NCBI GenBank assembly: GCA_964252035.1
Contig: OZ176200.1
Direction: 5' to 3' (one strand)
DNA from: Podarcis erhardii
Lineage: Eukaryota
Length of the DNA: 64,000 nt
Below are positions 7,962 to 38,600 of this stretch, piece after piece (position 1 is the stretch's first letter; each line of letters opens with the position of its first letter). A program made the position numbers and the translations under genes. A model generated the notes under the pieces. The model saw nothing but the letters and a program-made list of their open reading frames with translations, had not been told where the DNA came from and did no database searches.

Positions 7962-7967
7962 AACGTG
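7962..7967. repeat. Target-site duplication AACGTG (left)
   Basis: Same hexamer at 15669-15674 directly outside the other LTR; 6-bp TSDs are typical of alpha/betaretroviral integrases. Confidence 0.93.
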
Positions 7968-8561
7968 TGTAGGAATGAAAATCACGGGAGACGAGCAGTG
8001 GGTGTCACGAGAGGCGTCTGCCGGGAAGTCCCGGGAACTCTCTTTTATTGAATATTACAAACATTGCCACAGGTGTGCTTGTGGCTGATTGGTTGATACA
8101 AACACAAAGAAACTCGTTGCTTATTGGTTAATGCAAATGCAAGGCGGGAATTACATGTGAGGGGTGGGAATTACATGTGAACATTAATCACTGGTAGATT
8201 AAAGGCTGGGAGACGAGGTTGGGACTAGACAAGCATGAAACCTCCTAATTAATAATAACTAAAGATTAATATGGCATAAAACAATTACTAATGATTTATC
8301 ATAACATGAAAGAATACAATAATCAAGTTCTATAGATGTGGTCAGTTATGCATGGAGAACGAGTCACCATGAACTTAAGGTGAACTGAGCGATGAGGGAA
8401 TGTCTTGGTGTTTGGAACAGGTTCGTACAGTGTGTGCAGAAACAGAGAAAAGATTATAAGCAAGACTTCCCAAAATGCAAGAGAAAAGAAGCAATGCTTC
8501 CCATAAGGCCACAGTTATGTGCAGAGGGAAAACATATGTGCAGAAGGAAAACTTCCCTTTA
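7968..8561 (-). repeat. 3' LTR of provirus (594 bp)
   Basis: Preceded on minus strand by PPT; AATAAA at 8044-8049 (minus), CCAAT boxes, octamer. Confidence 0.97.
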
Positions 8562-8580
8562 TCTCCCCCTTTCTTTTCTT
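8562..8580 (-). promoter_or_regulatory. Polypurine tract AAGAAAAGAAAGGGGGAGA
   Basis: Purine-only run abutting the 3' LTR. Confidence 0.92.
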
Positions 8581-8743
8581 ATTTGCGAGGCATACTGGGT
8601 AAGGCAAAAATGTTTCGGGATTAGTGGTGTGCCAGCAAATGCCCGAAATAAGTTCGCCAGGGAGGATGGGACAGAAGATACCACGAGATACGTGGTTTGC
8701 CAGCGCATGCTCGAGATAACTCTGCCCATTTCTCCCCTTTGGT

Positions 8744-10218
8744 TTACTGTTGGTGTTGCCATTTCGCAAGATAAGCAGCAAGGATTTTATTGGGTGGCTG
8801 AGGGGGAGAGAGAAGCCGAGAGAAAAGACTTATGAGGCCAGGAATGCATTGGAGGAAGCAGCAAAACAAAATTAATATACATATAATAACAATGGCATAT
8901 TGAAAAAGACTACGAAGCCAAGTAAAATTTGGCAGCCATGCAGTAAGCCACTGGGTGAAAGAATCCCAGAGACCGGAGAATTCAACATCTTGTTTAATGT
9001 GGTGTGTAAGATTTTGTAAATGGGAGATTTGTTTTTGGATGGCCTTAGAATTGTCAGTGATATTAAAGCAGCACATGTTTTCCACTTGTTCGCATCCGTA
9101 ATGATGGAGCATCAACAGATAATCGACAGCAGCGCGATTCTGCAGGAGGCCATGCCGGAGTTCACTCTGCTCCTTATTCAAAAATGAAGGGCTTGTGAAG
9201 TAAAATTCAAAGCTTTTGCTGCGGAGCAAGCTAAAGAGTTAATATTTCTGCTATTCTGGACAGCCAATCCAGGGACTCCTAAGAGAGAGACAGCTAAAGA
9301 AATATATTCAGTTCTGCTAGGGAGGGAGACGGAATCATCGCAATCGTTATTCAATTCTATAGCACGTCGATATCGAGATCGGGATAAATGATGCTTTTTG
9401 GGTAAAATGATGGACAAACGGCTTAAACAGCAGGGTGTACCGTGGCTAATGTTTGCTGGAATATAATTAAACGTATAGCCAGGACACGACCAGAACCAGC
9501 CTTCAGGCAGCTCTGTATATTTATATATATATGAGATATTTACATAATTAGAGCAATTAAAATTATCCTTACCCATCTCCACACAGTTGGTTTTTGTGCA
9601 ATTGACCATACGGGCACAAGTAACATTAAAAGAAGCCACGTACGGGGTTGACAGATCAATGGCCAAAGGTGGGCGTCGGCGCATTTGGTTACCCCAAAGT
9701 TGGTAACCGTCATAACCAAGGGTGCGGAGAGAGTCATTTTGGGGTAGGGACGAGAACCACCAGGTGTCATTTTGTATATCAAAGGGATCGTGACAAACAG
9801 GGATAAGGCAAGAACCAAGGATTTCGCCGATGGATACTTGCTGGGTGAGGCAGAAAGAAGAAACATTAAGGGTTTTTGCAAAAGATTCCCACACATTTAT
9901 TGGTGTGGAATCACCGCCGTTAGGAGCGGAGGCTGAGAGGGGCAAAAACAAAACACTAAAAATGAGCACTATCATGGAATTTATGTTAAGACAGGAGATG
10001 AGACACAAAAGCAAATTATTAGGGGTCGCTTCAAGCTGCTGTTCCTTTCTAAGCTGTTCAGCTTGAAATGAAAGTGATTTTATTTGGCCCCACGTCACTG
10101 GTCCATTACGGTTTCCCCGCTTGCGAGTCCTGGGGGGAGCGGGCGTCGCATCCTGGGTGATCTGCAGCTGACCGTCGAACTGCGGTATTGGATTCTGCAG
10201 AGCCTGTTGCCAAGCCAT
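8744..10218 (-). CDS. env: Retroviral Env (Rec/Rem-like signal peptide, ASLV-type SU and TM), interrupted by a 1-nt break at A5 run 9180-9184; ~491 aa if repaired
   Basis: ATG 10218 in good Kozak context after acceptor TTTCTACTCCACAG (10259); RYRR furin site 9364-9375; Cys-flanked internal fusion peptide; LQNRAAVDYLL ISD; CEQVENMCC (CX6CC); TM anchor AIVIICILILFCC. Confidence 0.95.
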
Positions 10219-12748
10219 GATGGAGGCGGACGCAGCGTGCGGGAACCCAGCGAGCACCCTGTGGAGTAGAAACTGCAGCATAACCCTTTCCCCACGTAAT
10301 CAATTTCACTGGTTCACTCCATTCATTGGAGGGTAATATTTTATAGCGGACCAGTGGGGCTGGGAGTATCTCTGTCTGCTGAAAATGCTTCTGGAGGCGA
10401 GTGTAAGATTGATGATCCTGTATGGAAATATTCAAATGGTTGAGAGTAAAGAGAACACTGGCCAACCAGGCTTCTTTTTCAGAAAGCGAGGCTGGGATTC
10501 CGGCCTTCTTTTCCTGCCGGATTAAAGCAGTTTTTAAAGTGCGGTTAGCACGTTCAACAATGGCTTGGCCTTGAGAATTATAAGGGATGCCAAATAAATG
10601 GTGAATATTCCAAGTCTCACAAAACTGAGCAAAGCTTTTTGCACAATATGCTGGGGCATTGTCAGTTTTTAAAGAATGGGGCTTGCCCATGACTGACATA
10701 GTACGAACAAGGTGATTGCAAACATGCTTAACTTGCTCACCCCTTTGAGGGGTGGCCCAAATATAACCTGAGAAGGTATCAATGCAGACATGTATAAACT
10801 TCCAAGGTGAAAAGGGGGCAAAGTGAGTTACATCCATTTGCCACAACTGGTTGGCTTCCAGCCCACGGGGATTGACACCAGGGCTAGGGTGGCCAATCTG
10901 ATTAGAGCATTGAGGACATTGTTGGATAATTGCACGAGCCGCTTCCAACGGGATGTGGAATTGGCGGCTTAGAGCTTTCGCATTTTGATGGTGGAAAGCG
11001 TGACTTTCAATGGGGGAGACAGGCAAAACCCTGAGCAAAGAGTCTGCTTTTGCATTACCATCATTGAGGAAACCTGGGAAAGGTTGGTGGGAGCGAATGT
11101 GCACCACAAAAAGTGGATGGGAGCGATTGGAAATAAGCAATTGTAAAGACAAAAAAAGGCTCAATAAATTGTCATCCAATGAAGGACTTACATAACTGCC
11201 TTGTAGGCGGGTTATGACATTTGCGACATAAAGACTGTCCACAATCAAATTAAATGGCTGTTTGGAGAAATGGTGCAAGGCCTTGACAGCGGCTGCCAAC
11301 TCAGAACGCTGGGCAGACTTTTGTGGAAGAGTGTAAAGGCTTTGCCATTCCCCATTCTGTTGCCACGCGACTACTCCCCTGGAGGGGGCTCCGTCAGTGA
11401 AGACAGTAGGGGCATCCAAAGGGACAGGAGATAATATGGAAGAAAAAGATAGGGAAATTTGTTTGCTCATTTGCAGGCGAGGGTCGGCTGGGATATGGCA
11501 ACCCACTTGGCCGACAAACTCAGCTAAAGCACACTGCAAATCCATACTATTGGAGAGAGCAGTTTCCCATTGTTCCAGGGGCATGGGCACAATTATTTGG
11601 TTGCAATCAACGCCAAAGAGGCTTTTGCAGCGACGGCGTCCCTTGCTGATGAGCTGAGCAAGGAGATCCACTAAAGGAGTTACCGTGTTCTTTGGTGTAT
11701 GATGTAAATACAGCCATTCAATTATATGAACTTTTGATGGGCCTAACTGAATAATGGCTGCAAAGGGTTGGACAGAGTCCGTCATTATGACCACACCGGG
11801 CAAAACATTAAGGATTGCTCGATCAACCCAGTGGAGGCGCATAAGTTCCTTTAACTGGGCAACAGTCTGCTGTTGAGAAGAGGTCAAGATAATTTTAGCA
11901 CCAGGAGAATGGTGGCCTTTTAAGGCTGAAAAAAGTGGCCGTAAAACTTCAAGAGGGATTTTAAAATAGGGTCTTATCCAGTTGATGTTGCCCAGCAATT
12001 GCTGCAGCTGGACATATTTCATTGTTTTTGGGATATGTAATTCGGGGACTATAGGAATGGAATAGCTAGCTATCATTTTGTGCCCCAAATAATGAAAGGG
12101 GGAGGATTCCTGGACTTTCTCTGGGGCGATATGCAAACCATAAAGTGACAAACAAGTTATCAAATCCTGTTTCCATTGAGGGGGGAGGCTTGGCCCGCTG
12201 ATGAGCAGGTCATCAGTATAATGATAAATCAGGAGATGTGGATACCGAAGGCGAAAGGGCTGGAGGGCTTGATTCACATAATATTGGCACATGGTAGGGG
12301 AGTTCAACATTCCTTGCGGCAAAACCTTCCATTGGAATCTTTCTGTTGGCTGGCTATTATTTAATACAGGAACAGTGAAGGCAAAAAATTTACGATCCTT
12401 CTCCTGTAGGGGAATGGAGAAGAAGCAATCTTGCAAATCTATAATAGCCAATTGATAGGAATGTGGAATCGCATTTGGATTAGGCAGACCACACTGCAAA
12501 GGCCCCATGGGTTCAAGGATCTGGTTTATTTTCCGGAGGTCTTGGAGAAATCTCCACTTTCCGCTTTTCTTTCGTATGACAAAGACAGGGGTATTAAAGG
12601 GGCTTACAGAAGGCTCTATGTGGTCAGCCAATAATTGTTGATTCACCAGATTCTTTAAAGCAATGAGTTTCTCGCCCGTGATGGGCCATTGTTCCACCCA
12701 TATCGGACTGGTAGATTTCCAGGTAAGGGGAAGCGCAAGCTTACTCAT
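10106..12748 (-). CDS. pol: Retroviral Pol (RT-RNase H-integrase), uninterrupted 880 aa
   Basis: PLTWK, LQDLR, LPQG, YTDD; RNase H FTDGA/SELAA/VDSLY; IN H-H-C-C, WQMD, KTDN, IVER, WGKGYA. Confidence 0.97.
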   Translation of the reverse strand: MSKLALPLTWKSTSPIWVEQWPITGEKLIALKNLVNQQLLADHIEPSVSPFNTPVFVIRKKSGKWRFLQDLRKINQILEPMGPLQCGLPNPNAIPHSYQLAIIDLQDCFFSIPLQEKDRKFFAFTVPVLNNSQPTERFQWKVLPQGMLNSPTMCQYYVNQALQPFRLRYPHLLIYHYTDDLLISGPSLPPQWKQDLITCLSLYGLHIAPEKVQESSPFHYLGHKMIASYSIPIVPELHIPKTMKYVQLQQLLGNINWIRPYFKIPLEVLRPLFSALKGHHSPGAKIILTSSQQQTVAQLKELMRLHWVDRAILNVLPGVVIMTDSVQPFAAIIQLGPSKVHIIEWLYLHHTPKNTVTPLVDLLAQLISKGRRRCKSLFGVDCNQIIVPMPLEQWETALSNSMDLQCALAEFVGQVGCHIPADPRLQMSKQISLSFSSILSPVPLDAPTVFTDGAPSRGVVAWQQNGEWQSLYTLPQKSAQRSELAAAVKALHHFSKQPFNLIVDSLYVANVITRLQGSYVSPSLDDNLLSLFLSLQLLISNRSHPLFVVHIRSHQPFPGFLNDGNAKADSLLRVLPVSPIESHAFHHQNAKALSRQFHIPLEAARAIIQQCPQCSNQIGHPSPGVNPRGLEANQLWQMDVTHFAPFSPWKFIHVCIDTFSGYIWATPQRGEQVKHVCNHLVRTMSVMGKPHSLKTDNAPAYCAKSFAQFCETWNIHHLFGIPYNSQGQAIVERANRTLKTALIRQEKKAGIPASLSEKEAWLASVLFTLNHLNISIQDHQSYTRLQKHFQQTEILPAPLVRYKILPSNEWSEPVKLITWGKGYAAVSTPQGARWVPARCVRLHHGLATGSAESNTAVRRSAADHPGCDARSPQDSQAGKP

Positions 12749-13523
12749 TAAATTGAATGGAAGCTTGTAATTGTTGCAATAAATCTCTTCCCCACAGATT
12801 GAGGTGGATTTTTAGCACACAGGGCTGAATAAATGCAATGGTATCAGAGCTATCAGGCAGAGAAACAGGCAGCCATTGTACGCTTTTGGAAGAATTTTGT
12901 GGGCCACCCACACCCCAGACTGCAGAGGCAGGCTCAAGGGGCCACGTGGGGTCCCAACAATTACTGGAAATTACAGAAATGTCCGCGCCAGTATCAATCA
13001 AGCCCTCCAGAACTTTGCCATTAATTTTATACTTACGAAGAATTTTTTGGTCACCGATCCTCTGGATTACAGCTAATAACTGTGGAGAGAGAGAAGAGAG
13101 CTGGTGCAAATTACTATCCATAATAGAAGCAGTAGGAGGGGTAGGAAGCACTACCAAATGTGCCCAGGAGTCACCCTTTTTTAACTGCATGGGCATATGG
13201 CTCCAAAGTTGAAGCATTATTGTGCCCACATAGTCAGGATCCAAGGCTGCAGGAATAACCATGATTCCTTCTTTGGCTGCAGAAGATTTCGGCAAAATCA
13301 AACCTGCGACCTTGGGAGGTAGTGGACCTGCAAGTTGGGTGGGCATGAGCACGATTTCACCAGGCAAAACAGAGTCTTTGGATTCCTGATTAATTAAATC
13401 AATGGTGAAATCTGAGGGTATCTCCTTAGGAAAAGCATCAATGGTGGTAGCCGATGGCAATGGGCCCTCTAATTCTCGTGGCCCGAGGGCGGGGCCAGCA
13501 TGGAGTTTCCCGAACTCCTGCAC
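12741..13523 (-). CDS. pro: Retroviral Pro: degenerate dUTPase-like domain plus aspartyl protease (entered by -1 frameshift at ~13505)
   Basis: GLILPKSS / LDPDYVGTI dUTPase-like motifs; LIDTGAD active site and LWGRDLL; no G-patch. Confidence 0.94.
   Translation of the reverse strand: MQEFGKLHAGPALGPRELEGPLPSATTIDAFPKEIPSDFTIDLINQESKDSVLPGEIVLMPTQLAGPLPPKVAGLILPKSSAAKEGIMVIPAALDPDYVGTIMLQLWSHMPMQLKKGDSWAHLVVLPTPPTASIMDSNLHQLSSLSPQLLAVIQRIGDQKILRKYKINGKVLEGLIDTGADISVISSNCWDPTWPLEPASAVWGVGGPQNSSKSVQWLPVSLPDSSDTIAFIQPCVLKIHLNLWGRDLLQQLQASIQFNE
13464..13511 (-). promoter_or_regulatory. gag-pro -1 ribosomal frameshift signal: G GGA AAC + 7-nt spacer + H-type pseudoknot
   Basis: Slippery heptamer 13505-13511 in gag frame; stem1 TGGCCC/GGGCCA, stem2 GCCCTC/GAGGGC, loops 1 and 9 nt; pro frame is -1 to gag. 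Confidence 0.9.
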
Positions 13524-14943
13524 TGATTAGCCCAATGATAGCCTTTACCGCACTTTGGGCATTTCTTGGAGGGTTTAGCCTTATTGGCAGTACCATCCCT
13601 GTGCGCCCCACCGCCAGGTGCCCTGCATTCTTTTGCAAAATGACCAGGGCGCTTGCAATTAAAACAGTTACCAGTTGGTTTATTGCCAGCCTGGATGGCA
13701 CCGGCAAGCAAGGACATGGCATGGCTCTGGCTTCCAATGTCCGCACAGGCTTGAATCATCTGCGCCAGATCATATTTTGGGCGATTAGTGATCGACTGCA
13801 AAGCCTTCTTACAGTCAATGTTCGCATTTTCAAACGCCAATTTTTTCATCAATTCATTCTGGGCTGTAGTATTATCAACCTGCCTGGTCACTGCTTCTTT
13901 CAATCTATCTATAAATTGGTGGTAGGGCTCTGAATTAAGTTGTTTAATATTAACAAAAGAGCTCAGCGGCTGCCCTGAGACAGGGACTTTTCGAAAGGCG
14001 CGCTGTACGCAAGTCGCGGTGCGGCTAAAATGTGCAGGCGTCAGCGTCGCCTGGGCTGTTATATTATCAAAAAGACCGGCACCATAAAGTTCATTAGCTG
14101 TATGCTGGGCATCAGACAGGGCTGAAGCACTAAGCCGAAATTCACTATCAAAGACAACATACTGGGCTGGTGAGAGCAACATGCGCATTAAATCCTTCCA
14201 ATCTTGGGGCAGCATGGTATAACCAGACGCAATCCCCTCCAGCATCCCTGTGACATAGGAGGATTTTAAGCCAGAATCAGCAATGGCCCTCCTCAATTCT
14301 CTCAATACAGAATAAGGAAGGGTTTCATAAAACACCTGTTGTTGAGCATTTCCTGCGTTTGCATAGGTGATAGGGAAGGCAGATGGCATTTCCCCCGCCC
14401 ACTCAGATTCTTCCTGCAAGGACAAAAGCCCCTTCTGTCTTGCCTGAGAAAGTGCAGCACGCACGGCTCCAGTAGGAGCAGGCAAAGAAGGAGGGGGGGA
14501 AAGGGGGATGGGGGGGTGGAAGCAGGTTGAGATGGAGGAGAAGCAGGGGGGGGTTTGCCGGGCTGCAAAGGAGAAGGAGGCAGGAGCTGTGGAGAAGTGG
14601 GATAAGGGGGGGGATTGTCTGCTGCAGGCAGGAGAGCAGGGGCCGAAGGAGACGCCTGGGGGACCTGGGGTCCAAACTTTGCAACGGCCTCTGCACATTT
14701 CTGCCAGGTAAGCAGACAATGAATCGGAGCCCTCGGTTCTGCAAAGAGGGTCTTTCCGATCTTTTGCCAAGTCTCCACATCGAGAGAGCCAGTCTCAGGA
14801 TAGAAAAGACATTGGCGATTAATTTCACAAATGAGGTGTTCAATTTCTTTTAAGGAAACATGAGCACCCACAACCCGCTGTCTAACTAAAGAGAACAATT
14901 CCCTAGCATGTTTTTTCTGCAATTTAGTTAAATCGCCGCCCAT
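13469..14943 (-). CDS. gag: Retroviral Gag (MA-late domains-CA-NC), interrupted by one 1-nt frame break in G-runs at ~14493-14553; ~491 aa if repaired
   Basis: MGGDL start (Gly2), PSAP and PPPY, MHR-like QLNSEPYHQFIDRL, two CCHC knuckles CFNCKRPGHFAKEC and CPKCGKGYHWANQC; pieces in track ORFs 14302-15051 and 13469-14770. Confidence 0.95.
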
Positions 14944-14949: not shown

Positions 14950-15054
14950 GAAGTAGCGCGCTTTGACTTTTCCAGTCGAGTGAAGTACAGGGGCTGGGCT
15001 GCGTAAGGGATCTGGCACGTCCGGGGTCACCAGATGCACGTCCGGGGTCACCAG

Positions 15055-15072
15055 ATCACGTCGGGGTCACCA
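15055..15072 (-). promoter_or_regulatory. Primer binding site, tRNA-Trp (TGGTGACCCCGACGTGAT)
   Basis: 18 nt, 2 nt after LTR end (CA-TC-TGG); matches the known ASLV/RSV tRNA-Trp PBS sequence; two variant copies follow (15015-15053). Confidence 0.93.
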
Positions 15073-15074
15073 GA

Positions 15075-15668
15075 TGTAGGAATGAAAATCACGGGAGACG
15101 AGCAGTGGGTGTCACGAGAGGCGTCTGCCGGGAAGTCCCGGGAACTCTCTTTTATTGAATATTACAAACATTGCCACAGGTGTGCTTGTGGCTGATTGGT
15201 TGATACAAACACAAAGAAACTCGTTGCTTATTGGTTAATGCAAATGCAAGGCGGGAATTACATGTGAGGGGTGGGAATTACATGTGAACATTAATCACTG
15301 GTAGATTAAAGGCTGGGAGACGAGGTTGGGACTAGACAAGCATGAAACCTCCTAATTAATAATAACTAAAGATTAATATGGCATAAAACAATTACTAATG
15401 ATTGATCATAACATGAAAGAATACAATAATCAAGTTCTATAGATGTGGTCAGTTATGCATGGAGAACGAGTCACCATGAACTTAAGGTGAACTGAGCGAT
15501 GAGGGAATGTCTTGGTGTTTGGAACAGGTTCGTACAGTGTGTGCAGAAACAGAGAAAAGATTATAAGCAAGACTTCCCAAAATGCAAGAGAAAAGAAGCA
15601 ATGCTTCCCATAAGGCCACAGTTATGTGCAGAGGGAAAACATATGTGCAGAAGGAAAACTTCCCTTTA
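15075..15668 (-). repeat. 5' LTR of provirus (594 bp)
   Basis: Identical by eye to 7968-8561 except G15404 vs T8297; adjacent to PBS; minus-strand termini TA...CA. Confidence 0.97.
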
Positions 15669-15674
15669 AACGTG
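15669..15674. repeat. Target-site duplication AACGTG (right)
   Basis: Matches 7962-7967. Confidence 0.93.
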
Positions 15675-15767
15675 GATGTGACTTTAGTGCCCCCAGTCTC
15701 AAACTTGTTGTTCAGAGGCAACTGTACCACATCCAGATTGCACATTTCCCACAATCCACCACAGAGA

Positions 15768-16148
15768 TGTTGTTGTTGTTTAGTCGTTTAGTCACGTCCG
15801 ACTCTTTGTGACCCCATGGACCAGAGCACGCCAGGAACTCCTGTCTTCCGCTGCCTCCCGCAGTTTGGTCAAACTCATGCTGATAGCTTCGAGAATACTG
15901 TCCAACCATCTCGTCCTCTGTTGTCCCCTTCTCCTTGTGCCCTCCATCTTTCCCAACATCCAGGGTCTTTTCCAGGAAGTCTTCTCTTCTCATGAGGTGG
16001 CCAAAGTATTGGAGCCTCAGCTTCAGGATCTGTCCTTCCAGTGAGTACTCAGGGCAGATTTCCTTCAGAATGGATAGGTTTGATCTTCTTGCAGTCCATG
16101 GGACTCTCAAGAGTCTCCTCCAGCACCATAATTCAAAAGCATCAATTC
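15768..16148 (-). mobile_element. Bov-B (RTE) LINE 3' fragment
   Basis: (CAA)n tail; translation RVPWTARRSN...YFGHLMRR typical of Bov-B RT C-terminus. Confidence 0.9.
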
Positions 16149-17973
16149 CTTAGGGTTTTTTTTTCATGTTGAGCTTCAGACCATAACCACAGAGATAGGG
16201 ATGTTTAAAAACCTTATAAGCATTAAAAAAATACTCCCAGAAATGTTGCTGGGGACAATTCCCTACCTCAAGCTAAATTCTAATGCATCTCAGGGTAGTG
16301 CATGTTTTGGTGTCAGGAAAGGCACTTAAGTAAGTCTGCTTCACCAGAGCAGATTTTATGTGGAATACTCTATTCCCATATTTATCCTAATACTTTCCAT
16401 TGGCCCAAACAAAGCACAGCAAACACAGGAGTCAGCAGGGGGATTTCTTGGGACTTTTTCTTTCCCATGTTCTTTTGGGTGTCCCATATTCTGTGTGGGG
16501 TCTGCAGGTCAGATATTTTTTGGGGGGAGGGCAAGTTTACACCATTGTAGTAGCTGGGACAACCCCCCTTCCCAACCCATGCCTCCCTCCAAGATTCAGC
16601 TGTCATTTAGGGTGTGTGTGTTTTTTTAAAGGCTGGAGTATATATATATATATATATGTATAAAAAAAGAAAATATGCTAATCGTTTTCCAACAGCTCAT
16701 TAGCATATTAACTAGGAGGAGCTTTTTACAAGAAGGCAGCAGTAAGCCAAGTAAGATCACAACTTAAAGGTAAGGACTTTTTAAAAAAATAATAATTAAC
16801 ATGCGAAAAAATAATCCTAAGACTGTTGGAGCAATTGCTGCCCCTATGCATTTGATCAGCGCTTCTTGTTTTGCATTGCATGTAACCAAATGGTTGATGA
16901 TGAATGCCAGGTAAATGGGACTTGCAGGTGTTGGGCAGAGCTTTTGTGCCTCGAGGTCCTGGCACCCAAACGGTGTCCTTCAAACTGGAACAGAAAGTTG
17001 AGGCTCTTTGCTACTCTTGTCCTTTCTCAGTTTTGCATGAAAGTTCCGCTGCCCTGCTTTTTCCCTCCCTTCCCTTTCTCTAGTGACAACACCTCGAAAA
17101 GTCAAATACACTTTATAGTTCTGGCCTTTAGTTAATCGCATTTGATGCCTGGTAATTAACGGGAGCATTTTCTTCTTACGTTGGGACATGTACTGCTAAA
17201 ATTCATTTACCAGCTACAAAGGAGAGGGAGAGCTGTTTGTGTTTTTTTCATCTGAACTAGCATTAACCCAAGGCTCAGAAAAGAGAGAGGCAGTCATTGA
17301 ATCACAATGATTATTGGGGGCTCAGATCTAAATAATCTCCGTGCACTTGGATGCATATTTCCTTTTGAGTCATAGCCAAAAGTTATTCGAGTTGCTTACA
17401 AAAACTCTTTCTTCATCTTACACCGAATCCCTTAGCAAATCCTCAAATATCTTTGCAAATCTCAAAGATATTAAGGCATTTAACTCCCTCACCCTACCTC
17501 CTCCCATTCAGACCTTTGATGCCTGGTGTGACTAGAATGATTTTAGAGTTGTAACTCATAGCCTGAATAAGAAATTAAGGGAAGCACTTTGCAAAAAGAT
17601 AAAAAAGGGAGGGGGAAGTAGCTAGTACAATATCTAATTACTTATAGATTTTAAGTCAAATTTGAACAAGATAAATATTTAAATAAAAGGTACAATCATT
17701 TAGAGTTGCTGCTAGCCACCCCCACCCCACCGGCGAGGGTACATTTCTGAATTCAGTAGATAGCCAAGTAAATGAATTTATTAGGGTTACACATGATTTA
17801 CATCAGTCTATCTAAAAGAAGTCTGGTGTGCCATTTCTATAGGAAGTTCCATTTGTGTAATATGGTTGTGTTATCTAGCTCTCCATGCTATACTTACTGT
17901 TGATAGAAATTCCTGGGTTGTGAGCTAGTGTGATATGATGTGTAGCTGCTTGAGTGACTGACATAAATCTTCT

Positions 17974-29026: not shown

Positions 29027-29222
29027 AGGAACACAGGGAGTGCCCTTATACTAAGTTAAACTTTAGGTCGATCTAGCTCAGCATTGCCCACGCTTGGCTG
29101 GCAGTGACTTTCCAGGGTTTCAGACAGGGATATTTCCCAGCCATACCTGGAGATTGCAGGGATTGAACCGGGAACCTTCCACATGCAAGGCAGATGCTCT
29201 TACCACTGAGCTACATCCCTTC
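29027..29222 (-). mobile_element. tRNA-derived SINE (Squam3-like)
   Basis: Reverse-strand head GTAGCTCAGTGGTAAG...GGTTCAATCC and same tail. Confidence 0.72.
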
Positions 29223-35600: not shown

Positions 35601-38600
35601 TATTGCACCACTCCATGGCTATTTTCCTCAGGGAATTTTCACAGGAGAGACTATGTCCCATTGATTTCTGTAAAGCAGCTTAGAATCCTGAATTAGCTAG
35701 AACTGGGGTGGGGAGAAGGTGGACCAGAACCTACCAGCAGATCTCTGGGTAATTTTTCCGGAACTGGAAATGCCAACTATACCTTGATCAGCTTTTGACC
35801 AACCAGGCTGCCAGAGGTCAGATAGCTCTGAAGCTAGATTCAGCCTGGGGAATGTTGGAGAACTAACAGACCGACTTTGAATAAAAACTCTTTTCCATTG
35901 GTGATACATCTCTGTAAAACACTTAGATACTACAGCAAAGGATTTGTCCTGGCCTTATGGCATCTCACATCTCTCTGAATGAGATGTCTTTTGCTCACAC
36001 ACTGGGTTCTTCCACTTCCATTTATATTTTTACCTGGATCGCCTTTGTAACCCCTTTCCCCCCGATCGCCTTTCACTCCTGGTACTCCTGAAAGAATAAA
36101 GGGGAAGGTCAGGTCAGAAACTTCTTGGGAATCAGTATTTCAACAGATTGAGCAACATTACCGTTTGTATACCTGGAAAGGTGCTTGCTTCTCCTTTCTG
36201 TCCTTTCTCCCCTTGCGCTCCCTTTGGGCCAGGACTTCCTGGTGGTGCCATCCTGCCTGCAGGACCTTGTAAGTGAACCAAAGAAGCTTGGTCAAAGCCA
36301 GAATGACACTGAGAGAGCAATCAAGCACTGAAGTATATTTTATATTTGGTGGACGAGGGAAGGTTTAGAAGGACTGCAGCCTAGTGCTGGCAGTGCTCCT
36401 GCCTTGTATGCAGAAATAAAGTTCCAGGTTCGATCCCTGGCAACTGGGATTGCCCCTTGCCTGAAACCCAAGAGACCTGCTGCCAATCGGTGTTGACAAC
36501 ACTGAGCTAAATAGTCCAATTGGTCTGACTCAGAATCAGGAAGCTTCCTTTGTTCCGCATCCTTTCAAAGGCTCAGGACAAGACATCCCTTGACAACAAC
36601 ACAGTATCAGAACAACACAGCACTTGCATTCCACAGATTCCTCTCTCTTAAATATTGCCTTCCAACAAGGGGAAATTGTCTTCTTTAGTCATTTCACACC
36701 AGCTTCCTGTTGATTTATCATTTTGCGTTTGTGTGTATAACCACAGACTTTGGCTGCAAATCTATAGAGTAGCATGATAGTTAGAATGGACAAAGCCAGA
36801 GAGTCAGAATTCATTTCTATTATTAAGTCACCACCAAACTTATTGACAAGCCTGAGGAAAACAAAAGCCTTTTAATGATCGTAGAGGCATCTGTTGATCA
36901 ACCAATGGCAGCCGATCAGCATTTACTTTTTTGCTGTTGTAGCAAGTGATGCACAAGTTAATCCTGAACCTCTTGCCCCAAAACCCACTGAAGAAAGCAA
37001 AACAGCAACTTCCCAGCAGTATTTCACTAGATAGGTCAGTCATAGTTTGCCTTAGGACCCCAGAATGGAACTGTTTCAATGAATATTTGTCTTTTTAAAT
37101 AATTCTTAGGAGTTAGTTCCAAGTTGGTTAAATCAGAAGCAGTTTACTAGTAAAATTCTAGGCATGTTTACTCAGAGGTAGGTACCACTGGGTAAGTATT
37201 ATTAGTGTGCAATCCATATCACATTTACTTCAGAGTAAGCCCCACTGAACAGAGTTACACTTCTGGGTAAACATGTATAAAAGGTAAAGGTACCCCTGCC
37301 CGTACGGGCCAGTCTTGACAGACTCTAGGGTTGTGTGCTCATCTCACTCTAGAGGCCGGGAGCCAGCGCTGTCCGCAGACACTTCCGGGTCACGTGGCCA
37401 GCTTGACAAGCTGCATCTGGCGAGCCAGCGCAGCACACGGAACGCGGTCCCTATTTATCTACTTGCACCCGGGGGTGCTTTCGAACTGCTAGGTTGGCAG
37501 GCGCTGGGACTGAGCAACGGGAGCGCACCCCACCGCGGGGATTCGAACCGCTGACCATGCGACCGGCAAGTCCTAGGCGCTGAGGTTTTACCCACAGCGC
37601 CACCCGCGTCCCTAAACATGTATAGGATTACACAGTTAGAGAAATTTGTGTTGATTAACTGTTCAATCCTAGGCATATCTGCTGAGAAATAAGCTCTGCT
37701 GGATTCAGTTGATTTACAGTCTTGTAAGTGTGTACAACATTGCAGTCTAAATAGAACCTTAAATGAAGCACAAATGGTAGGAAGTATTTGTGTTAAATTG
37801 CATTTAACCTGGATGTCCAGGAGGTTAATTGCAATATACCTGGTTGTCCAGGAGGTCCTTGGGGACCACGTGTACCTGAAATAGAACATAAATGAACATA
37901 AGAGAACATAAATGAACACAAAAGAACATAAATTGCTAGTATATGGGATGCTTCTATCTTTATTTTGCAGCTAAGTTACAAATGGCTAACAGAATATAAG
38001 GAGGCATGAGAATAGAAACGGGAACAGAGTCTTGGACTGGGACATAGGGGGTGTTGCTAGCAGGGGTAATGTTGTTGCTGCTGCTATTGATATTAATTTT
38101 TGATCTTATAATTTATGTGGAAATTGTTCAATTTGGTTGTGTACTTTTCATTGTGTTTTATTTATTGTTTATTACTTCTTTTGCTATGTTTGTAATCATG
38201 TAAATCTTTTCCTGCTGTAAGCCTCCTTGAACATAGTTTTAACTATAGAAAGGCGGCATACAAAAAATGATGATGATGATGATCAGACATCTGAACTTTC
38301 AATATAAGATGAAAAGAGAAAAGCAGCAGCTATTTGTGCATGCCTGCATGTAACTGTGGCAAACAGTATCACTGAGTTCCAAGAAGATTAACAGAAATAC
38401 GCAGAAGGAAGAACTATTCAGTTTGTGTGGTCTTGATAAACCATAGTTTAGCTTCCCCTGTTGCGCAAACCAGGCCTTAGAATGCCTGTCTGTCTTTACC
38501 CTTAAGAGTGACAAGATCCAGGCATGGTTTTCTCTGGTTATATTCTTCCCTTACGGTTTCTGAAACCAGCACGGACAAGATGAAGATTCAGGGAGTGTTG

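Follow-up and report, generated by a model that had tools for sequence, protein, structure and literature searches.

An Env leader apparently related to Rec/Rem signal peptides precedes an alpha-type envelope in a betaretrovirus-like provirus of Podarcis erhardii

Introduction

Regulators of viral RNA that derive from the Env signal peptide are described, in the literature cited here, for three mammalian betaretroviruses carrying a beta-type Env. For MMTV and JSRV it was reported that the cleaved peptide acts on unspliced RNA (PMC9694287, PMC3185594, PMC12724133). The cleaved signal peptide of HML-2 was described as nucleolar, with neither shuttling nor RNA export (PMC2649029). Macaque sRec was likewise described as lacking export activity, its virus using a constitutive transport element (CTE) (PMC11379458). 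Short signal peptides are taken as a mark of gamma-family Envs in a review of these proteins (PMC9967133). Alpha-type envelopes have been described as ubiquitous in reptiles (PMC13568524), so that an ectodomain of this type in a reptile is not in itself new. A literature search, conducted mostly outside subscription papers and supplements, found no account of a Rec/Rem-like leader from reptiles or joined to an alpha-type Env; members of the leader lineage discussed below may be among the sequences listed in the supplements of the alpha-type Env papers.

Here a provirus in the genome of Podarcis erhardii (GCA_964252035.1, contig OZ176200.1) is compared with these systems. All coordinates refer to the window, the whole stretch of 64,000 nucleotides that was analysed, and amino acid positions refer to Env unless stated otherwise.

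The provirus and its backbone

The window harbours an endogenous retrovirus of class II on the minus strand, extending from 15668 to 7968. Its features outside env are the following.

15669-15674 and 7962-7967: target-site duplication, 6 bp, identical six bases in both flanks
15075..15668, minus strand: 5' LTR, 594 nt, aligned to the 3' LTR
15015..15076, minus strand: primer-binding site (PBS) of the tRNA-Trp type (15072-15055), then two degenerate tandem copies
13469..14943, minus strand: gag, with MA (Gag_p10, beta-type), CA and two zinc knuckles, in two overlapping frames
12741..13526, minus strand: dUTPase-protease open reading frame, in its own frame
10106..12811, minus strand: pol, with RT, RNase H and IN, open
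8562..8581, minus strand: polypurine tract
7968..8561, minus strand: 3' LTR, from the LTR alignment, with AATAAA at 8049

The 5' and 3' LTRs differ by one mismatch in 594 nt (columns of the pairwise alignment) and the insertion is therefore considered very recent. On the proviral strand both LTRs start (window 8561 and 15668) with TA and not with the usual TG. While pol is open, gag and env have one frame change each, that of env lying in TM near 9220-9180. Homopolymer runs occur in both frame-change regions, so that an assembly error is possible. Among named proteins, the closest comes from Podarcis lilfordi (91%). A fragment at 15712-16149 (minus strand), immediately beyond the 5' LTR, resembles the tail of a LINE reverse transcriptase, presumably of the BovB type. 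Elsewhere in the window ARAGORN reported a tRNA-Ala(TGC) at 29148-29220 (minus strand) and a tRNA-Thr(TGT) at 36374-36447 (plus strand), which may be SINE-derived.

Judged solely by domain content and similarity scores, the backbone is beta-like: MA is of the beta-type, dUTPase and protease share a separate frame, and Pol is nearer to MMTV and HERV-K than to ASLV. The IN domain scored 233 bits against MMTV versus 155 bits against RSV, and the best PDB match of Pol was the HERV-K polymerase. The dUTPase match of the window stops at profile position 104 of 129, that of a sea-turtle relative (P0016) spanning positions 9-128; the dUTPase of the lizard lineage may be inactive. The PBS lies in a tandem array with a period of 21 and 3.0 copies, one perfect and two degenerate, and its 18-mer equals the ALV/EAV-HP PBS given in Table 2 of PMC4635179. 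A tRNA-Trp primer is an alpha-like trait on a beta-like backbone, and a basal alpha/beta placement of the backbone is thus possible.

The Env leader

The end of pol and the beginning of env share 113 nt, the pol stop at 10106 corresponding to env aa 38. Env consists of the following parts.

9925..10218, minus strand: Env leader, 98 aa, of the Rec/Rem/Rej signal-peptide kind
10137-10108, minus strand: PPRTRKRGNR, basic patch, aa 28-37
10101-10072, minus strand: PVTWGQIKSL, aa 40-49
10026-10000, minus strand: TPNNLLLCL, aa 65-73
9364..9924, minus strand: SU, 187 aa, alpha-type, no CxxC, furin site at its end
8744..9363, minus strand: TM, alpha-type, with Cys-flanked internal fusion peptide, ISD, CX6CC and membrane anchor

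The three leader motifs had been noted in the original prediction and were recovered at the same places, downstream of an env ATG at 10218 on the minus strand. The leader is composed of an N-terminal motif, the basic patch (4 Arg and 1 Lys in 8 residues), a helix of aa 43-59 and a second helix running from aa 66 into the hydrophobic core. Its AlphaFold model has helices at 43-59 and 66-91 and a disordered N-terminus, and an NES-like pattern is present in the first helix (43-51). Hydrophobicity is maximal in an 11-residue window from about aa 83, with a core at about aa 80-94, which would place the signal peptidase site at aa 96-98; in a relative that is 91% identical, the SU anchor motif lies at aa 108. 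Given this predicted cleavage site, the 98-aa leader is a long tripartite leader (84-98 aa) at the env 5' end. The IN match stops at residue 265 of the query, shortly before the env ATG, so the N-terminal motif of the leader is not explained by the IN fold.

The only Pfam match of the window leader was HERV-K_REC (PF15695; E 0.013, 16 bits), with the profile match spanning aa 37-84. The same family was matched by 7 of 9 aligned leaders of the protein family (best E 3e-6) and by five of nine short reptile models. Scans of whole proteins detected it in 9 of 16 leader-bearing proteins, the misses being six sea-turtle-type proteins and P0065, and in none of 13 Env relatives without the leader; P0155, with a degenerate leader, was excluded from both counts and had no match either. 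A further 28 proteins all lacked the match, including P0045, whose leader is of the same kind but more distant. The profile similarity on which the original prediction had been made to depend thus exists at the family level, but every score shown stays below the Pfam gathering cut-off of 27.5 bits (best 27.3, in a relative), and some circularity through Pfam seed membership is possible. A fold search of BFVD with the leader model is a partly independent test of homology, with weak E-values. It ranked HERV-K Env first (E 0.042, prob 0.99) and MMTV Rem second (E 0.31, prob 0.97). Two word-indexed profile searches with the leader returned no mammalian sequence, be it Rec, Rem or Rej. The ESM Atlas returned only TLV_coat clusters below 0.9 for the leader and no usable match for P0008. 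We take helix 43-59 to align with the NES-holding helix of Rec and TPNN to correspond to the point where the hydrophobic domain of Rec begins; the basic motif of Rec presumably sits much further upstream than the basic patch of the leader.

On these sequence and model comparisons the leader is a distant homologue of the HERV-K and MMTV signal peptides. The relationship to Rec/Rem-type signal peptides proposed earlier is supported by the HERV-K_REC matches across the family and by the first two ranks in BFVD. Convergence of amphipathic helices before a signal anchor would account for Pfam scores that all lie below the cut-off, for the modest E of the window leader, for fold-search E-values of 0.04-0.3, and for word-indexed searches returning no mammalian Rec, Rem or Rej. 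It is nevertheless very improbable, as many members match one single family, over the same stretch of the profile and down to E 3e-6, 41 other proteins are without any such match, the fold search places precisely HERV-K Env and MMTV Rem at the top, and the leader occupies the same gene position on a beta-like backbone.

The alpha-type ectodomain

If Env is cleaved after aa 98, SU comprises aa 99-285, or 187 aa, with the furin site RSRYRR at aa 280-285, and the earlier description of a short, ASLV-like SU agrees with its alpha-type features. In TM, Cys 293 and Cys 331 flank the internal fusion peptide and a CX6CC motif is present. As read from the sequence, the ectodomain corresponds to the avian gamma-type (alpha-type) Env as defined in the available descriptions (PMC3758190, PMC13568524). 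An Env profile searched against the PDB matched the ASLV TM best (67 bits), followed by Marburg GP2 (47 bits); the corresponding search with the single Env sequence gave nothing meaningful. The SU fold had middling matches to Syncytin-2 and filovirus GP1 (Z 5.4-6.8), and the Env model retrieved echidna ERV, ALV ev/J and EAV-HP from BFVD with TM-scores of about 0.2; these model-based matches are only consistent with a gamma-family SU. Domain content, the IN scores and the ASLV TM match together uphold the original prediction of a beta-like backbone combined with an alpha-type SU and TM.

Distribution and modularity of the leader

Profile searches located the leader in lizards (lacertid, cordylid, phrynosomatid and teiid), elapid snakes, pond and sea turtles, a tortoise and a caecilian. 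No Env relatives were detected when viral and metagenome contigs were scanned. The leader core (aa 42-81) shows 30-62% identity in nine distant relatives, compared to only 5-35% for aa 82-98, and the N-region is conserved from the caecilian through snakes and turtles. This degree of core conservation appears to exceed the needs of ER targeting. Overlap with pol was rejected as its cause, as the core helix 43-59 lies outside the overlap. Sea-turtle models have a matching MA as well as the leader, so the leader appears tied to the same backbone type.

Several proteins indicate that leader and SU are separable. P0005 has an SU (aa 108-285) that is 81-82% identical and an unrelated leader. The caecilian protein P0137 has a leader core that is 62% identical, placed on a CxxC gamma-type SU. 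P0045 has an Ig domain and an alpha-type Env behind a leader of this kind that is more distantly related (hhalign 74.5%, E 2.7e-5). By description, P0045 resembles the SIRP-like RBD class outlined in 10.1101/2024.03.17.585361. At the N-terminus of P0033, an alpha-type Env, lies a chemokine-like (IL8) domain that scores under the Pfam cut-off (E 0.0011) and possibly represents host-domain capture.

In an SU/TM tree of 43 proteins, picked for coverage from 211, all nine leader-bearing alpha-type Envs fell in one 16-row clade (100/99), with P0005 nested among the leader-bearing rows (99/97 and 100/99). The clade's other six rows, counted as non-leader, are gene models whose N-termini are short or truncated. 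Short leaders are carried by many alpha-type Envs of the set. The single clade and the nested position of P0005 argue that the pairing of leader and SU is old and lineage-wide, and on these grounds a recent swap in this provirus was rejected. Of the env swap at the signal-peptidase site that had been proposed, the module boundary stood, in view of P0005 and P0137; that the swap is this virus's own was not supported. Sequence comparison indicates that the junction of signal peptide and SU is a real module boundary. The simplest reading makes the combination of leader and alpha-type SU old in the lineage and places the swap in P0005. A tree of the leaders themselves was poorly supported (only 3 of 15 branches starred) and no direction of transfer is drawn from it.

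A twin-hairpin element behind env

8603..8737, minus strand: twin-hairpin RNA element, between the env stop and the polypurine tract, identified by fold z-scores and repeat

The twin hairpin is new and was absent from the original prediction. The element (135 nt) is built on a 43-nt direct repeat (8684-8726 and 8616-8658, 74% identity). The fold of 8737-8603 has a z-score of -6.07 in the sense orientation, with 0 of 200 shuffles as low, and of -4.16 in antisense; the single hairpins, with z -5.5 and -4.1, are each significant alone. A scan of env and the 3' LTR in 22 windows had one outlier, 8800-8601 (z -5.37), the next value being -1.72, and among 24 control windows from gag-pol three had z <= -2, with a minimum of -3.30. 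In a scan with 150-nt windows, the best window reached z -5.94 sense and -2.47 antisense, compared to a minimum of -2.29 in 35 background windows. U3/R windows are not unusually structured (z -1.7 or higher). Between the two hairpin copies 4 of 13 shared pairs differ, three on both sides and one on one side, and none is broken; this comparison involves two sequences only, and the structure was predicted from the same two. The element is known from one provirus only. No Rfam family matched it, the one match, in the LTR, being due to chance (E=1). For 119 metagenome loci with the hairpin motif, neither blastn nor tblastn showed similarity to the end of the provirus, and these loci were dismissed as chance.

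Modelled as such, the twin hairpin is a candidate structure that could be a response element for the leader or a constitutive transport element. A composite of CTE and Rej-binding element is described at the env 3' end of JSRV (PMC3185594), so the position of the hairpin fits either role. The end of env, the hairpin and part of U3 are spanned by a stop-free frame of 104 codons (8515-8829, minus strand), and a pyrimidine-rich acceptor lies at 8797; the frame may be due to chance or may represent a second exon of the rec type.

Splicing and export motifs

10258..10278, minus strand: likely env splice acceptor, predicted from sequence context, 40 nt before the env ATG

The putative env acceptor was not retained under strict pyrimidine filtering; in gene models from turtles, the leader exon is entered at a similar distance. 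For a second splice of the rec type, no strong donor was found in the leader or at the beginning of SU, the best site agreeing with 4 of 7 consensus positions. In two predicted Caretta gene models (P0166 and P0180) the leader end is joined to a position just before the furin site, a junction resembling that of a doubly spliced rem-type RNA.

The basic patch was counted in 62 leader-hit proteins, from which 6 without the core were dropped, the remaining 56 collapsing to 16 non-redundant leaders; five of the 16 have at least five basic residues in 8. With six permissive NES patterns, a match in either helix occurred in 1 of 15 leaders, that of the window itself (P0210 left out). TPNNLLLCL, with NES pattern matches in only 1 of 15 leaders, was discarded as a conserved NES and is better read as the start of the membrane helix.

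Since the Arg patch and NES are poorly kept, the HML-2 signal peptide and sRec are described as inactive in export and a strong second donor is missing, homology leaves the function of the leader unsettled. Moreover, as a structured 3' element is present, a viral export protein could be unnecessary. That the leader regulates unspliced RNA is, by analogy, nearly an even call. The arrangement is built like the Rem/Rej system, and the leader is homologous to it; with scores below the Pfam cut-off, it is not filed here as a functional member.

Possible roles of the leader and the twin hairpin

The explanation put forward here, to which we give slightly less than an even chance, is an arrangement like that of JSRV and MMTV, with the leader, once cleaved, acting via the twin hairpin on unspliced RNA. 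A non-mammalian betaretrovirus-like lineage would have inserted recently, having kept a long betaretroviral Env signal peptide together with its gag-pol backbone, with an alpha-type SU and TM behind it. A singly spliced env mRNA would be translated from the ATG at 10218, and the leader would send Env to the ER and, as hydrophobicity suggests, be cleaved at aa 96-98. Judging from its homologues, the released leader may enter the nucleus or nucleolus by means of the basic patch. There it would bind the computed fold at 8737-8603, which both genomic and env RNA would contain, and boost export or translation of unspliced RNA. It is a tentative proposal, possible but on balance doubtful, that a widespread class II lineage of reptiles and amphibians regulates its unspliced RNA by this analogy, with a Rem/Rej-homologous leader binding the twin hairpin. 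The module would stay with gag-pol and the ectodomain would be exchanged behind the leader, the candidates being alpha-type, gamma-type and IgV-bearing alpha-type ectodomains.

The twin hairpin may instead be a CTE to which a host factor binds, as is the case in MPMV or SERV-K/MER11, with the leader export-dead or repurposed for a nucleolar role or for Env folding; the virus would then be 'simple' for RNA export. This is a real contender, though we consider it rather doubtful. The twofold repeat between env and the polypurine tract resembles a two-site host-factor element, the comparison being with the position and symmetry of the MPMV CTE. The poor conservation of basic patch and NES points the same way, as do the precedents of the HML-2 signal peptide (PMC2649029) and sRec (PMC11379458) and the association of env swaps with gain of a neighbouring CTE, as reported in the latter source. 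However, Rfam has no match for the twin hairpin, the conservation of the leader N-region from the caecilian to snakes and turtles speaks against a relic, and JSRV is described as having a CTE and yet needing Rej (PMC3185594). It is unlikely that the leader serves in ER targeting only, with the hairpin acting in packaging, reverse transcription or 3' end formation. The leader would then stay with the backbone since it overlaps the pol tail and lies behind the env acceptor. The 113-nt overlap and the nearby acceptor would favour breakpoints downstream of the leader whatever its role, and in P0005 an unrelated leader precedes an SU that is almost the same. However, helix 43-59 is conserved outside the overlap, and more so than the hydrophobic core, and short leaders occur in many alpha-type Envs of the set.

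Comparison with known systems

The system of JSRV Rej and JREE, by its published description, shares with the lizard provirus a long cleaved Env signal peptide, a beta backbone and a structured element at the env 3' end (PMC3185594), the function of the lizard leader being putative. JSRV differs in its beta-type Env and 84-aa peptide (PMC9694287); the lizard virus is alpha-type and its lineage has reptile hosts. MMTV Rem-SP (p14) is likewise a signal peptide of 98 aa, with 29% identity to the leader over 48 columns in the fold search. Unlike the lizard provirus, MMTV has a beta-type Env; in the lizard provirus there is no evident rem-like RNA with a double splice, and the basic patch of the lizard family is weaker and variable. 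HERV-K(HML-2) Rec and Env signal peptide (PF15695) gave the profile match over aa 37-84 and the top fold match. Rec, however, is described as needing a second exon and a response element in the LTR (PMC2649029, PMC11379458), whereas in the lizard provirus the leader is below the Pfam cut-off, no strong rec-like donor was found and U3/R is at z >= -1.7.

ASLV and the AREs (Mabuya Mab3/4, CHIRalphaEnv) resemble the lizard provirus in the lack of CxxC in SU, the Cys-flanked fusion peptide, CX6CC and the tRNA-Trp PBS. They differ in backbone, that of the lizard being beta-like (Gag_p10, dUTPase, a separate pro frame and an IN nearer to MMTV). The signal peptide of CHIRalphaEnv is given as short, 16-32 aa (PMC13568524), and those of MLV, ALV and HTLV as about 21-64 aa (PMC9967133). 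The lizard lineage thus breaks the pairing of a short signal peptide with a gamma-family Env. MPMV, PyERV and TgERV-F are also of class II in gag-pol and obtained their covalently linked gamma-family Env through recombination (PMC3758190); their Env is of the gamma-type proper, and the description consulted in that source makes no mention of a retained beta-type leader.

Compared with all of these, the present analysis widens the range of a homologous leader to lizards, snakes, turtles and a caecilian. It suggests that the signal-peptidase boundary can be respected when env is exchanged, in which case regulator and entry machinery would evolve separately. If the proposed role is true, the betaretroviral export module would be old, would occur beyond mammals and would be independent of a beta-type Env. 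The 98-aa peptide and the 135-nt element form a compact pair that bears on the question whether the betaretroviral export function is ancestral.
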